64,000 nt of DNA from an uncultured Chloroflexia bacterium (GTDB taxonomy: Bacteria > Chloroflexota > Limnocylindria > Limnocylindrales > CSP1-4): positions 96,001 to 160,000 of the forward strand of contig CAVVJT010000010.1 of NCBI GenBank assembly GCA_963748625.1, given 5' to 3'. The notes beneath the pieces were generated by a model. It ran no database searches. It was given only the letters and a program-made list of their open reading frames with translations, and was not told the DNA's origin. This document shows, in pieces, positions 38,873-44,565 of this stretch (the first letter of the stretch is position 1; each line of letters starts with the position of its first letter). The position numbers were made by a program, and so were the translations under genes.

Positions 38873-39723
38873 TCAGCGCGGACCCGTCCGTTGGGCTGCT
38901 CGAGGGAATGCGGCGTCGTAGGCGGCGACGAGCCCGTTCCCGAACGCCTCGAGGCCGTCCTCCCCCACCCCGCGTCGCTCTGCCACCCAGCGTGCCGTGA
39001 TCGCCACGAACTCGGGCGTGTTCCGGCCGCGGTTGCCGCCCGGCGGCGACAGAAACGGCGAGTCGGTCTCGACCAGGAGCCTGTCCGCCGGCACGAGCGG
39101 CGCCACGTCCGCCGACGCCTCCTCGCCCTTGCGGAACACGAGGCCCGAGAACGAGATCACGCCGCCCAACGCCAGCATCTCGCGGGCGTAGTCCACCGGG
39201 CCGCTGAAGCTGTGCACGATCACCCGCGGCCGGTCGCCGAAGGCAGCATCGCCGGCGGCACCATCGAAGCCCGCCGCCCGCAGCTCGGCCACCAGTGCGT
39301 CCTGCGCATCACGCTCGCCCATGCGTGAGCGACAGTGGAGGATCGGCGGCTTGCCCGTGGCCAGCGCCAGGGCAAGGTTCCGGCGCAGGTTGTCGAGCTG
39401 GTCCGGCCAGGGCGAGAACATGCGGTCCGAGTCCAGACCGGTCTCACCGATCGCCACCACCCGGTCGTCCTGGGCCCAGGCCTCCACCGTCGCCCAGTCG
39501 GCCGCATCGACCTTCGCGGCATCGTGGGGGTGCACGCCAACCGAGGCGTCCATCCAGGCCCAGCGGCTCACGACCTCGAGGGCGCGCTCCGACGAGCGGA
39601 TGTTCCAGCCGGGCACGAGGAGCCGCTCGAGGCCCGCGGCAGGCGGCGCTCGCCGACGACCTGCTCGAGGTCGTCGTCGAAGCGGTCCGCGTTGAGGTGC
39701 CCGTGCGCGTCGACCAGACGCAT
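38873..39723 (-). CDS. tatD: TatD family DNase; frameshift near 39645
   Basis: VDAHGHL, GVHPH, AIGETGLD, ILHCR, VHSFSG, LVETDSP. Confidence 0.9.
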
Positions 39724-39726
39724 GGG

Positions 39727-40178
39727 CTAGGCCGGGTCGAGCGCGCTGCGGATCTGCTCGACGTGCTGCAGCCGGTGCGGTGCCCGCTCCACCCAGTTGG
39801 GGCTGTCGGCGGCCCGAGCGCCGGCGACCTGCTCGTCGGTGAGCGAGGCGGCGACGATGTCCATCGCCGCGGCGGCCTCGAGGCACAGGGCGGCGGCGGC
39901 CTCGCCGGGAACGGCACGCCAGGTGGGCTCGAGCGCGTCGTTGTTGCGGTTCGTGACGTCGCTGGAGGCTGCGGCGGGCAGGACCATCCCTCCTCGGCCG
40001 CGTGGCGCCAGCGGGCTGCATGCCACGTGTCCCAGAACGCGAGGTGGGCCAGCGCCATCGACACCGTCCACCCGCCGCCGAGGTCCTCGCCGAGGTCGTC
40101 CACGGACAGCCCGGACACGAGATCCGCGAGGGCTGCGGTCGCCTCGGCGTTGGCGAGCTCGAATGCGCGGTCGCTCAT
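39727..40178 (-). CDS. DinB-superfamily protein; frameshift near 39988
   Basis: WTVSMALAHLAFWD...HRLQH. Confidence 0.75.
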
Positions 40179-41836
40179 GCGCGGCTTCCTGCGGCGGGGT
40201 CAGCGTCGGCGGCTTCGGCCTCCAGGCGCGGGAACAGCGGCTGCGGGGTCTCGATGACCTTGCCGGCCTCCCACGTGGCACCCCACTCGAGCTGGCCGAG
40301 GATCGCGGGTCCGCCGTTGCCGTCCGGCCCGTACGCCCAGCCGTAGCCCAGCTGCTCGAGGATCCGCGGGGCCGCGGCCGGCATGAACGGCGCCACCGCA
40401 AGGCCGATGAGCCGGCAGGCCTCGATGAGGTCGGCGAGGACCAGCCGGAGTCGCGCCCCGGCAGCCTCGTCGCCCGCCTTCGCAGCCTTGGCGAGGTTCC
40501 ACGGCTGCTCCGCATCCACGGTCTTGTTGGCGCCGCCCACGAACTCCCAGAGCTCCGCGAGCGCATCGTGCAGGCGGTAGGTGGCGAGCTCGTCCTGGTA
40601 CAGCCGCAGCGTGTCCGCCCAGCCCTCGGCCAGCGGGGACTCACCGGAGGGACGTGGGGCCGGCCGCTCGCCCCCGAGGTAGCGGTTCACCATCGACACG
40701 GTCCGGTTGACCAGGTTGCCGAAGTCGTTGGCGAGGTCCGCGTTGTAGCGGCGGACGAAGCTGTCCCAGTTGACGTCGGTGTCCTTGTCGAAGGCGACCT
40801 CGCGCAGCGTCACGTAGCGCGCGCCGTCGGCCCCGAATGCGGCGACCACCGCGTGCGGGTCGAGGAAGTTGCCGCGGCTCTTGGACATGCGCTCGCCCGA
40901 CACCAGCAGCCAGCCGTGGACCCAGACGTGCTTGGGCGCGTCGAGCCCGGCGGACCACAGCATCGCCGGCCAGTAGATGGTGTGGAAGCGCGCGATGTCC
41001 TTGCCGATGACGTGCAGGTCGGCCGGCCACCAGTGCTGGAACATCTCGATGTCGCCCGGGAAGCCGGCGCCGGTGATGTAGTTGATCAGCGCGTCGTACC
41101 AGACGTAGATCGTGCCGGCCTCCGGATCCCAGGAGCCGTCCTCACGCTGGGCGGTCTGACCGTCCTCGCCGATGGGGAACGGGATGCCCCAGGTGGCCCC
41201 TGCGCGGCTGATCGAGAAGTCCTCGAGGCCCTGGCGGATGAAGCCGAGCATCTCGTTGCGCCGGTAGTCCGGCTGCACGAAGTCCGGGTTGGCCTCGTAG
41301 TAGTCGAGCAGGCGCTGCTGGTAGGCCGAGAGGCGGAAGAACCAGTTCTTCTCTGTCAGGTACTGGAGCGGCATGCCCTGGTGGTTGGGACACTGCATGC
41401 CCTGCGCGGTCTCGAGCAGGTCCGACGGGGCCTTGAAGCCCTCGCTCGGGCAGTACCAGCCCTCGTATGTGCCCTGGTAGATGTCGCCGGTCTCGAACGC
41501 CCGGCGAACCATCTCCTGGGCGGAGAGGTAGTGGTCCGGGTCGGTGGTGCGGATGAAGCGGTCCGGGCTGATGAGCAGCGCATCCTCGGCAGAGGTGAAC
41601 AGCTGCACCTTCTCGTCCACGAACTCGCGCGGTGTGCGGCCCTGGGCCTCGGCGGCCTGGGCGATGTTGACGCTGTGCTCGTCGGTGCCGGTCAGGAACC
41701 GGGTGTCGTCGCCCTGCATCCGGTGCCAGCGCGCGATGACATCGGCGCCGATGACCTCGTACACGGTGTGGAGGCCGGGCGCGTTGTTCGCGTAGGCGAT
41801 GGCGGTCGTGAGGTAGAAGCGACGACGATCGGACAT
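40175..41836 (-). CDS. metG: Methionine--tRNA ligase (short form, non-canonical HIGH motif)
   Basis: FYLTTAIAY, TGTDEH, YVWYDALINY, GKDIARFH, RMSKSRGN, LANDFGNL. Confidence 0.95.
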   Translation of the reverse strand: MSDRRRFYLTTAIAYANNAPGLHTVYEVIGADVIARWHRMQGDDTRFLTGTDEHSVNIAQAAEAQGRTPREFVDEKVQLFTSAEDALLISPDRFIRTTDPDHYLSAQEMVRRAFETGDIYQGTYEGWYCPSEGFKAPSDLLETAQGMQCPNHQGMPLQYLTEKNWFFRLSAYQQRLLDYYEANPDFVQPDYRRNEMLGFIRQGLEDFSISRAGATWGIPFPIGEDGQTAQREDGSWDPEAGTIYVWYDALINYITGAGFPGDIEMFQHWWPADLHVIGKDIARFHTIYWPAMLWSAGLDAPKHVWVHGWLLVSGERMSKSRGNFLDPHAVVAAFGADGARYVTLREVAFDKDTDVNWDSFVRRYNADLANDFGNLVNRTVSMVNRYLGGERPAPRPSGESPLAEGWADTLRLYQDELATYRLHDALAELWEFVGGANKTVDAEQPWNLAKAAKAGDEAAGARLRLVLADLIEACRLIGLAVAPFMPAAAPRILEQLGYGWAYGPDGNGGPAILGQLEWGATWEAGKVIETPQPLFPRLEAEAADADPAAGSRA

Positions 41837-41906: not shown

Positions 41907-44306
41907 TCAGGGCACCCCGAGCAGCAGGTGGCGGATGGACCATGCCTCGGCCTCGCTCCCCTTGCACCGGACTCGCACCGGTCCTGGGCGACCGGGGTCG
42001 AACGGGGCAGTGATCCGGGTGACGCGCCCGCCGGTCACAGCCAGGTAGAGGAGCCCGATCAGCGGCGACAGCAGGATCGCGAGCACGCAGCCGAGCCCGA
42101 GGTCGCGCCCGACCTGCACGGCTGCCACCTCCCGGACCGGGAATACCGCCGTGTGGACGACCCGATAGCGCTCCAGCCAGACGCGCCCGGCGACCACCAC
42201 CAGCCCCCAGGCGCCGAACATGGCCAGCAGCCCGACCGCGAGGCCGTCCGGCACCGAGCCGCCCGGCGCGAGCGCAGCGCCGGCGATCGCCGGGACCAGG
42301 ATCCCGGCTCCGCTGAGAAGCACGAGGGCCCAATACTGGTGACGCGCCGCCGGATCGAGCAGCTCCGTCCGGGCGGTGACCACGCCATCGGCGACGGCGA
42401 GCCAGACACGTCCGCGGGCCGCGCCGTCGGCGGTCCTGATCGACACCCAGGGCACGGCCGCGGGGAGCTGGCCCGGAAACGCCATCGCGACGGATGCCTG
42501 GTGGACCAGGCCCGGTGCGAACGGTGGGGCCACCGGGCCCGAGGGAGCCGGCGGTGTGAGCATGGCCTGCTGCGTGATCGTGGCCTGCGGCGTGATCGGG
42601 GTTGGCGGAGAGGACGGGTGCTGCCGCTCGGCCTCCCGAGTCCCCGGCGCCGACGCCACCCTGTCGAACAGCCATGCCACTCCGGTGACCATCGAGAACG
42701 CCAGCACCAGGCCCATCGTGACCTGCACGTTCCGGTTGGCCAGAGCCGCTGCGGGATCGCCCTGCGGGTTGAGCAGCGTGTGGAAGAACAGGAAAGTCGC
42801 CCCGCTCGTCGCAAGGAGCCAGGCCACGCGGCTTCGCTGGCGCAGCATGTCGCCGGCCGAGCCACGGAACCCCACCAGTGCGACGAACAGGTTCTGAAGC
42901 GCCGACGCGAACACCAGCAGGAGCATTGCCTCGATCCCTGCGAGGCCGTTGGCCAGCCCGCCGTCCCGGGCGAGCGCCGTTGTCACCATCGTGATCGCCC
43001 ATGCCACGCCGCCCACGGCCGCGAGCGCGGCCACCCCGATCACCGCGAGCCGCCGCGCCCGGGCAGCACCGAGCTCGGTGTCGTCGAGCCGCAGCGCTTC
43101 CGGCGTCCCGAACATGAGCCCCGGCACGACGGCGGCAACCCTGGACACCCCGACCGACCCGGCGGCCAGCAGCAGCGTCGTCGGCCGGACCGACAGCGAC
43201 GCCGCGACACCCCACCGCCGCGCGACAGCCCACGCGACGACATCGTCGCCCACGCCCACGAGGCCATTGGCGACGGTGAACGAGACGAGGAGCCAGAGCC
43301 CGGTGATCGTGAGCGGCTCCCAGCCCGGCTCGAGGAGCGAGAACACCACGCCGTAGAACATGGTGACGCCGATGAGCGCGGCGATGTCGCGCAGGCGGCG
43401 CCGGCGGATCCGCCCGGTGGTCACCCTCCCGATCCGTGCCTCGAGACGTCCCAGCATACCGACGCCGGGGACCCGCGCGGCGATCGCCGCCTCGTGCTGC
43501 GCCAGGAGGCTCGACGCCACCTTCGACGAGATCGTGAGCAACAGCAGGGCGAGCGCCGCGAGCAGAAGGTTCGTGCCCACGACAGCCGGATCGGTGCTGA
43601 CATCGAGCGGGGTCGGGATGTGGGTGGTGATCACCGGCACCAGCGGGCCGGACGGCCGATAGACAGGAGCCTCGGAGCCCACCGCTGCGGCCAGCCGGGC
43701 GTCGAGGATGCCGGCGACCTCGGCGAGGGACGTGACCGGCTCGACGCCCTCGGTCCACGCGTGGCCCACGACTGCGAGGACCGGGCCGCGCCGGGCCGCC
43801 ACCGCCCGGTACTCCACGCCGACGTCGGGCATGTGGATGGCGACCGCGAAGCGGCTGACACCGGTCCGCATCCCCGTGATCATCTCGACTTCGGCGTCAC
43901 CCATCGTTGCGGCCACCGCCTCGTCGACGAGGCGGTCCGCCTGCTGCACGGTGGCGTCGAAGGCTGCCTGGTCGTCGGCCGCCAGCGGCCCGATGAGCAC
44001 CGCAGTCACGAACTCGGCCCCTGACTCCGTCCGGCGCTCGAGGACTAGGGCGTTGTGGTCGCCCGCTCCGGGCGAGTCGCGAATGCCGCCTGCGAGCGCA
44101 TGCGCCAGCGACGTGAAGGAGTCCACGTTGGCGTCGCTCGGGGCGAAGCCGTCGGGCAGGTCTCCGGCAACGATGACGACCGGGCCGAGATCCGGAAGCG
44201 CGGCCGGCGTGGGCGTCGGCGAGGGCGTCAGCGAGGGGTCGGCGCCGACGACCGGGGACACGGTGGCAAGGGCCGTCACACCTGCCAGCAGCACCGCCCG
44301 AAGCAT
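41907..44306 (-). CDS. Large multi-pass membrane protein (FGLLP-motif family-like)
   Basis: Signal peptide, IPTPLDVSTDP...TN, PGLMFG, FHTLLNP; start could be 44409. Confidence 0.65.
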   Translation of the reverse strand: MLRAVLLAGVTALATVSPVVGADPSLTPSPTPTPAALPDLGPVVIVAGDLPDGFAPSDANVDSFTSLAHALAGGIRDSPGAGDHNALVLERRTESGAEFVTAVLIGPLAADDQAAFDATVQQADRLVDEAVAATMGDAEVEMITGMRTGVSRFAVAIHMPDVGVEYRAVAARRGPVLAVVGHAWTEGVEPVTSLAEVAGILDARLAAAVGSEAPVYRPSGPLVPVITTHIPTPLDVSTDPAVVGTNLLLAALALLLLTISSKVASSLLAQHEAAIAARVPGVGMLGRLEARIGRVTTGRIRRRRLRDIAALIGVTMFYGVVFSLLEPGWEPLTITGLWLLVSFTVANGLVGVGDDVVAWAVARRWGVAASLSVRPTTLLLAAGSVGVSRVAAVVPGLMFGTPEALRLDDTELGAARARRLAVIGVAALAAVGGVAWAITMVTTALARDGGLANGLAGIEAMLLLVFASALQNLFVALVGFRGSAGDMLRQRSRVAWLLATSGATFLFFHTLLNPQGDPAAALANRNVQVTMGLVLAFSMVTGVAWLFDRVASAPGTREAERQHPSSPPTPITPQATITQQAMLTPPAPSGPVAPPFAPGLVHQASVAMAFPGQLPAAVPWVSIRTADGAARGRVWLAVADGVVTARTELLDPAARHQYWALVLLSGAGILVPAIAGAALAPGGSVPDGLAVGLLAMFGAWGLVVVAGRVWLERYRVVHTAVFPVREVAAVQVGRDLGLGCVLAILLSPLIGLLYLAVTGGRVTRITAPFDPGRPGPVRVRCKGSEAEAWSIRHLLLGVP

Positions 44307-44565
44307 GGCGACCCGCGGGACGGACAGCGCGTCGCCGCCCACGAGACCCTGGCGCAGGAGTTGGCGGATGTCCACCGACGTCTCCGGGCCACGCGCGACC
44401 GGACCCATGCCGGCCAGCGTGCGGATCGTGCGCCGCCAGCACCAGATGGGACAGGGCCGTCTGCCCCACAACGAGGGCCGCTCGCACCTTGGCGCTGCCG
44501 CGGTTCAGCGCGATGCTGCCTTGGCTGCAGCCTGTCGCGCGCCCACAGCCGCCAGGGAGAGGCCG

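Follow-up and report, generated by a model that had tools for sequence, protein, structure and literature searches.

The closest described counterpart of the enzyme considered here is the type 2 isoleucyl-tRNA synthetase (IleRS2), many members of which have G/AXHH in place of the HXGH class I signature (Brkic et al., Nat Commun 2023, PMC10485003). In the portion of that paper available to us, this exchange of positions 1 and 3 is stated to raise the inhibition constant (Ki) for mupirocin up to about 1000-fold at a small catalytic cost; Table 1 of the same paper gives an increase of 200- to 800-fold and a modest cost. The crystal structures of IleRS2 described there show the N-epsilon-2 atom of the third-position His at the site otherwise taken by its counterpart in the first His, and the enzyme stays active. 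The same portion reports a natural reversion in Deinococcus-Thermus and calls the exchange apparently exclusive to IleRS2 (PMC10485003). Here, we describe the exchange in a methionyl-tRNA synthetase (MetRS), encoded by the metG gene on a stretch of 64,000 nucleotides (hereafter the window) from an uncultured Chloroflexia bacterium placed in the class Limnocylindria (assembly GCA_963748625.1, contig CAVVJT010000010.1, positions 96,001 to 160,000), where the signature reads GLHT. A prediction made earlier from the letters of the window (the original prediction) had pointed to the parallel with IleRS2 and mupirocin resistance, which is borne out by the accessible part of PMC10485003, and had known of no such case in MetRS; our literature search, which left subscription journals mostly outside, found none either. 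As far as that search shows, the exchange has been described so far only in IleRS2, a mupirocin-resistant type. The gene and its two signature sequences are as follows.

40175..41836, minus strand: metG, encoding a MetRS1-type methionyl-tRNA synthetase of 553 amino acids (P0001), assigned from the open reading frame (ORF), its translation and family models.
41765..41776, minus strand: class I signature, which reads G21-L22-H23-T24 instead of H-x-G-H/T because the residues of positions 1 and 3 have changed places.
40877..40891, minus strand: loop equivalent to KMSKS, R316-M-S-K319-S (residues 316-320), reading RMSKS in the translation.

The minus-strand translation of bases 41753-41818, near the start of the 553-residue ORF, is FYLTTAIAYANNAPGLHTVYEV. 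It confirms the GLHT codons at 41765-41776 that the original prediction had reported without naming the strand of the gene, and the loop likewise reads RMSKS, as had been claimed. The stretch TTAIAYANNAPGLHTVYEVIGADVIAR of P0001 aligns without a gap across the signature to the matching stretch of the Mycobacterium smegmatis MetRS (2x1l), and in the alignments to 2x1l and 5xet, P-GLHT-VYE stands opposite PHIGHAYE or PHVGHAYE. Since the flanks are free of gaps on both sides, the register is fixed and the residues of positions 1 and 3 have genuinely changed places, with no insertion or deletion involved, which agrees with the earlier claim of canonical, in-frame flanks. The canonical HxGH signature at the start of helix alpha-1 is absent from P0001, which has its His at position 3 and its Gly at position 1. 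All 116 aligned MetRS1 proteins with a canonical motif (115 outside the swapped clade and the HLGH revertant at locus L159) open the signature with His and have Gly as its third residue, and their fourth position is His in 73, Thr in 21, Ser in 10, Asn in 6, Phe in 5 and Trp in one. Because position 4 is naturally variable in MetRS1, the Thr of GLHT is ordinary, and the unusual part of the motif is the His at position 3 together with a Gly, Ala or Pro at position 1. Thus, of the rearrangement that was originally proposed, the exchange of positions 1 and 3 stands, while neither the Thr at position 4 nor, taken alone, the Arg of RMSKS is part of it.

The codons of the signature vary synonymously among 149 loci, with GGC, GGG, GGT or GGA at the first position, CTG, CTC, TTG or CTT at the second, CAC or CAT at the third, and ACC, ACG or ACT at the fourth. 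Contigs from four public runs (two DNA and two RNA-library runs) were compared with the window at 85% likeness, the best run containing at most 36% of the sampled words. A 273-base contig from a metatranscriptome run covers positions 41540-41812, including the motif, with four differing letters; these contigs come from relatives, and the presence of the motif in a contig from an RNA library is not proof of transcription.

P0001 scores 423.9 bits against the NCBIfam model TIGR00398 (metG; cut-off 336.35) and 300.7 bits against PF09334, which places it among the proteins with a MetRS catalytic domain, and 543.7 bits against NF008900, under the cut-off of 598 for that model. The isoleucyl model TIGR00392 (ileS) gives only 65.5 bits, and P0001 does not belong to the IleRS2 family. 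Its best sequence matches in the PDB are the MetRS of M. smegmatis (2x1l, E 1.3e-122) and M. tuberculosis (5xet and 6ax8). In the AlphaFold2 model (mean predicted local distance difference test score 94, predicted template-modelling (TM) score 0.92), helix alpha-1 is predicted to begin at residue 22. The top Foldseek matches of this model are all MetRS, with 6ax8 reaching a target-normalised TM score of 0.93 over 539 alignment columns, and the predicted fold is that of MetRS, including the helical anticodon-binding domain. Compared with the canonical MetRS1 structures 6ax8, 5xet, 2x1l and 7wpl (from Staphylococcus aureus), P0001 has the same fold and domain order (target-normalised Foldseek TM scores of 0.91-0.94 at 35-41% identity), the same flanks (TTAIAYxN..P....YE), an MSKS core with its second Lys, here K319, and the anticodon-binding domain, but it reads GLHT and RMSKS where these proteins read HIGH or HVGH and KMSKS. 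The invariant columns of a 50-sequence MetRS alignment are all kept, including D52, E53, H285 and K319. The nearest non-swapped relatives are natural HxGT, HxGS and HxGN variants of MetRS1, which are at most 47% identical to P0001 and share with it Thr or another residue that is not His at position 4, but unlike P0001 have the canonical His and Gly at positions 1 and 3. To our knowledge, these variants have no published name.

The zinc-knuckle region of P0001 (residues 129-152) reads WYCPSEGF...QCPNH, where the alignment consensus is C-x-x-C-E. The second Cys of the first pair seems to be absent, and the knuckle may have lost its zinc.

The assembly comprises 10 contigs, with 98.3% completeness and 7.74% contamination, and to judge from a search of all of it with Pfam PF09334, the genome has a single type of MetRS. 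The search gave nine matches, two of which are full-length MetRS (302.7 and 300.7 bits). The second of them lies on contig C1 (28,285 bases), also reads GLHT and has the same flanking genes. About 21 kb of C1 are collinear with the contig of the window (C10:134895-158380), the two being 86-89% identical in nucleotide sequence. C1 probably represents a co-binned close strain rather than a real second locus, and such a strain would probably account for part of the 7.74% contamination. The weaker matches were judged by eye to be LeuRS (HIGH, RMSKS), ValRS (HLGH), CysRS (HIGN) and two class I LysRS; the ORFs of the latter two, at C6:88996-90840 and C10:754464-756194, are near-duplicates. When metG is compared with the copy on C1, the ratio of nonsynonymous to synonymous substitution rates (Nei-Gojobori) is 0.07, and with four relatives from the genus it is 0.15-0.24; the gene is under purifying selection. 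Its status as sole copy and this selection suggest that P0001 charges tRNA-Met. The check for a second metG that had been recommended with the original prediction thus returned no other type of MetRS, the extra copy on C1 being GLHT as well. The accompanying claim that this is the housekeeping copy is upheld by its being the only MetRS type in the genome and by the adjoining tatD gene, a homologue of which also stands beside metG in all 27 loci of at least 4 kb from related genomes.

38873..40021, minus strand: tatD-family hydrolase gene, a 382-residue open frame directly downstream of metG, with the PF01026 domain at residues 128-358.

The swapped signature is not restricted to the window. 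A survey of MetRS homologues for GxHT and GxHH had been suggested earlier; it shows the exchange to be an old trait of nearly the whole class that occurs in several variants. GLHT is found in all of the 121 close homologues (P0001 and 120 matches at 76-98% identity; 120 motifs read by regular expression and that of P0078 by eye) and in 28 of the 29 orthologous loci fetched from 41 related genomes, the remaining locus being without its N-terminus. Some of these orthologues, at 62-65% identity, come from a second family, one with small genomes. The best 150 representatives of clusters at 50% identity yielded 132 readable motifs, seven of which are swapped (six GLHT and one GVHT), all in proteins at least 52% identical to P0001, and the other 125 read H-x-G-[H/T/S/N/F/W]. 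A scan of 185,579 species genomes with the back-translated pattern T-T-x-I-x-Y-x-N-x-x-P-G-x-H returned at least 120 swapped loci. All of the 120 loci listed are titled as Chloroflexota-lineage bins, many of them as Candidatus Limnocylindria, Limnocylindrales or Limnocylindrus, except that one is titled only "bacterium"; a scan of this kind cannot show absence outside Chloroflexota. Two metagenome-contig scans also looked for the swapped motif behind a TTPIYY-type flank, which several Chloroflexota genomes outside the class have next to a canonical motif; these gave no matches, and they had no positive control and carry little weight.

Over 149 loci, the motif reads GLHT in 126, GLHH in 12, GVHT in seven, GLHY in two, and GIHT and GLHF in one each. 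The GLHH relatives of P0001, at 12 of the 149 loci, have the exact IleRS2-type motif. The His at position 3 is constant in all swapped MetRS found by homology, that is, in the 121 close homologues and in all five proteins from a more distant family of the class (f4).

We inspected the genomes of the class with two patterns; families and genomes are named here by anonymous survey codes (f1-f70 for families and G followed by a number for genomes). The strict pattern, with Gly at position 1, matched 156 of 301 genomes (f1 89/91, f2 11/12, f3 53/92, f4 0/103, f5 2/2). The relaxed pattern, which leaves position 1 free and demands His at position 3, was found in 244 of 301 (f1 90/91, f2 11/12, f3 53/92, f4 87/103, f5 2/2), and its backwards-pattern control gave 0 in each row. 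Among high-quality genomes (at least 90% complete and at most 5% contamination), the relaxed pattern was found in 143 of 154. The relaxed count includes ten unpublished genomes (G183, G145, G139, G126, G277, G319, G156, G190, G131 and G122), without which it is 234 of 291; without unpublished genomes, the strict count is 152 of 297. A Pfam-model search of five f4 genomes found a single MetRS in each, 46-51% identical to P0001, with a signature reading TTAIFYPS..P-PLHS- or -ALHS-LFE, and the f1 genome G267 also has the f4-type motif. In a sample of 301 genomes across the phylum, the swapped pattern matched all 33 from Limnocylindria and none of the 268 from other families, while the canonical pattern with the same flanks matched none of the 33 and 86 of the 268 (83 of 265 without the unpublished G357, G453 and G526). 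The remaining 182 genomes of the sample matched neither pattern.

Several members of the class depart from the rule. G100, in family f3, has a canonical MetRS that reads TTAIDYVNATP-HLGH-AYEK, and the same kind is found in the congeneric G151, G154 and G157. G055 and G067 (loci L160 and L161) have a distant MetRS, 27-28% identical, that reads HLGH. We take this distant protein to be MetRS2-like. Five genomes from the genus of G055 have one MetRS type each, which is the distant type in G055 and the swapped type in G120, G123, G134 and G160. With P0001 as query at E 1e-30, no MetRS was matched in G070 or in G044, which is 97% complete; G044 showed no MetRS with either query, and the canonical pattern was not matched in G044 and G142.

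In a FastTree phylogeny of 146 proteins, a branch supported at 99% separates all 48 swapped proteins from the 98 canonical ones. An IQ-TREE phylogeny of 65 proteins, inferred under LG+C20 with posterior mean site frequencies (PMSF) and a quick search, recovers a clade with 96% support in the Shimodaira-Hasegawa-like approximate likelihood ratio test (SH-aLRT), which contains the 28 swapped proteins and the HLGH protein of G100. The latter protein has as its sister a GLHH protein to which it is 71% identical (99% support), and it lies inside three nested branches with SH-aLRT support of 99, 96-97 and 98-99%. The lineage of G100 has reverted naturally from GLHH to HLGH. In this unrooted tree, the swap is read as the derived state because the canonical His and Gly are universal outside the clade (115 proteins). 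When the four motif columns were removed, a free quick tree placed two swapped clades apart, one with the GxHT and [A/P]LHS proteins and the other with the GLHH, GLHY and GLHF proteins and the revertant, across branches with 19-52% support. A tree that holds all 29 proteins together is 48.2 log-likelihood units better than this free quick tree, with a p-value of 0.956 in the approximately unbiased test (p-AU), and a single origin of the swap in the class is better supported. When residues outside the motif were filtered for those diagnostic of every swapped MetRS, only a weak candidate, V110, passed, and the revertant keeps it.

Like IleRS2, P0001 is a class Ia synthetase in which positions 1 and 3 of HxGH are exchanged (G21 and H23), and like IleRS2 as portrayed in the accessible part of PMC10485003, the swapped MetRS is a widely inherited housekeeping enzyme of which one clade has reverted to HxGH. 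Unlike IleRS2, the MetRS1 family has no editing domain, position 4 can be Thr, Ser, Tyr or Phe besides His, with Thr instead of the His of the IleRS2 motif in P0001 itself, position 1 can be Pro, and the swap is confined to one bacterial class among the genomes searched. The IleRS2 type is further marked by a shifted tip of helix alpha-1, which gives the position-3 His its space, and by a raised Ki for an adenylate-site inhibitor. We know of no inhibitor or resistance phenotype for the swapped MetRS. The IleRS of the same genome (contig C3:244551-246701, minus strand, locus L175; TIGR00392) reads PITANNPM-GVHH-AWG, and its GVHH is the published non-canonical GXHH signature of IleRS2. In this organism, the exchange of positions 1 and 3 is accordingly present in two class I synthetases, the GVHH IleRS and the GLHT MetRS, and in each of them an Asn-Asn pair stands shortly before the motif.

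We consider it likely that P0001 is an active housekeeping MetRS with a permuted signature, in which His23 takes the place of the first His, and that the arrangement originated once in the ancestor of the class and was later diversified and, in at least one lineage, reversed. The permutation would move the catalytic His from position 1 to position 3 and the small residue from position 3 to position 1, giving GLHT. From the N-terminal tip of helix alpha-1, the His23 imidazole would then most likely reach the place of the canonical first His and stabilise the transition state of methionyl-adenylate formation, as in the crystal structures of GXHH-type IleRS2, with position 4 tolerant in MetRS1 and occupied here by Thr. 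P0001 is most likely catalytically competent, and by analogy with IleRS2, His23 most likely has the role of the first His. After a single origin, the permutation would have been inherited vertically by genomes with no other MetRS, with later diversification at position 1 (Gly, Ala or Pro) and position 4 (Thr, His, Ser, Tyr or Phe), and at least one reversion to HLGH.

Several points weigh against this reading. The placement of His23 is an analogy and not a measured geometry. The same swap abolishes the activity of IleRS1, and a Gly-to-Pro change at position 3 of the Escherichia coli MetRS severely lowers its turnover number (Schmitt et al. 1995, cited in PMC10485003), both according to the accessible portion of PMC10485003, so that tolerance of the swap depends on the scaffold and cannot be assumed. 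Furthermore, 57 of the 301 genomes of the class lack a match to the relaxed pattern, which is explained only in part by revertants, replacement with a MetRS2-type enzyme and incomplete bins. The weakly supported separation of the two swapped clades in the motif-free quick tree may leave room for a double origin within the class, and apart from the weak V110, no clear structural determinant of the swap is found outside the motif.

A second, unrelated class I family with the exchange, in this case as the sole essential enzyme throughout a class, would change the published picture, and the looser variants PLHS, GLHY and GLHF together with a natural revertant would show the permutation to be a more general catalytic alternative. 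The GLHH enzyme of locus L047 and the HLGH revertant of L159, which are 71% identical, form a natural matched pair for testing the effect of the swap on catalysis and inhibitor binding, and such pairs could also show which features of the scaffold permit it. Annotation or quality filters that demand HxGH would wrongly flag the swapped MetRS.

As for what fixed the exchange, drift or weak selection on a permissive scaffold that can work with either arrangement seems to us a better explanation than selection by a specific antibiotic. A permissive scaffold fits because positions 1 and 4 vary freely, one lineage has reverted, and the gene is the sole copy in a housekeeping operon. The possibility raised in the original prediction, here taken to mean that a natural inhibitor of the adenylate site of MetRS selected for the swap, as has been proposed for mupirocin and IleRS2, and that the swapped enzyme would be intrinsically resistant to it, appears unlikely. 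The analogy speaks for it, as PMC10485003 gives a Ki for mupirocin that is 200- to 800-fold higher in swapped IleRS2, at modest catalytic cost, the same genome has a GVHH IleRS2, and the arrangement is kept by purifying selection across the whole class. The context of the gene points the other way: metG lies in a conserved housekeeping setting with tatD, with no sensitive second copy and no adjoining biosynthetic cluster, and each of 10 genomes searched with the Pfam model has a single MetRS type, unlike the sensitive and resistant pair formed by IleRS1 and IleRS2. The reversion to HLGH and the free variation at positions 1 and 4 also suggest that no strong directional pressure has acted on the motif. 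We know of no natural inhibitor of MetRS, and MetRS goes unmentioned in a review in J Antibiot. A broader form of the idea, that the exchange is a general, repeatable solution in class I synthetases that was fixed in the ancestor of Limnocylindria under pressure from a natural inhibitor of the methionyl-adenylate site, is a shade more doubtful still. If it were true, the whole class would be intrinsically insensitive to compounds directed at MetRS, and the GVHH IleRS2 and the GLHT MetRS would record the same kind of ancient chemical warfare.

It is improbable that His23 is no substitute for the lost first His and that the loss is compensated elsewhere, for example by R316 in the KMSKS loop. 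This possibility draws on an association with the loop, whose first residue is Arg in 88 of the 100 swapped MetRS compared, against 5 of the 116 proteins with the canonical motif, one of these five being the revertant; given a single origin, the association may reflect shared ancestry only. It also draws on the second Lys of the loop being Arg in 5 of 8 members of the GLHH group and in none of the 116 canonical proteins, and on the fact that position 1 can even be Pro, as in PLHS. On the other hand, the constant His at position 3 (121 of 121 and 5 of 5) would be hard to explain if it had no role, and R316 seems loosely coupled to the swap, as 3 of the 5 f4 proteins keep the first Lys of KMSKS and the revertant keeps the Arg. 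In the GLHH members whose loop reads RLSRS, both class I signatures are altered, since the normally invariant Lys is Arg. GLHH-type MetRS occur in other Limnocylindria bins at loci L047, L071, L074, L088, L095 and L111.

That P0001 is an inactive or re-purposed paralogue, with Met-tRNA supplied by another enzyme, is very improbable, as the 98.3% complete genome contains no other MetRS, P0001 retains the MSKS core with K319 as well as its anticodon-binding domain and all invariant core residues, purifying selection on the gene is strong, and the same arrangement is present in 143 of the 154 high-quality genomes of the class. A sequencing, assembly or frame artefact, for which only the origin of the window from a metagenome bin with 7.74% contamination might speak, can be put aside as next to impossible, given that more than 240 independently assembled genomes share the arrangement with synonymously differing codons, that the flanks are in frame and align without gaps, and that a metatranscriptome contig spans 41540-41812 with four differing letters.

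The product of the tatD gene matches the Pfam family PF01026 (TatD_DNase) with an E-value of 6.3e-46, and its true start lies inside the 382-residue open frame. In the loci derived from the pattern searches, TatD stands beside metG in 33 of 61, a count that says little given the short flanks of these loci. The neighbours of metG that were checked show no sign of a biosynthetic or mobile context, namely tatD, groES and an ORF of 854 amino acids. This last ORF, directly upstream of metG (41907-44471, minus strand) and also found beside the copy on C1, matches no Pfam family, and by eye its sequence looks like that of a multi-pass membrane protein.

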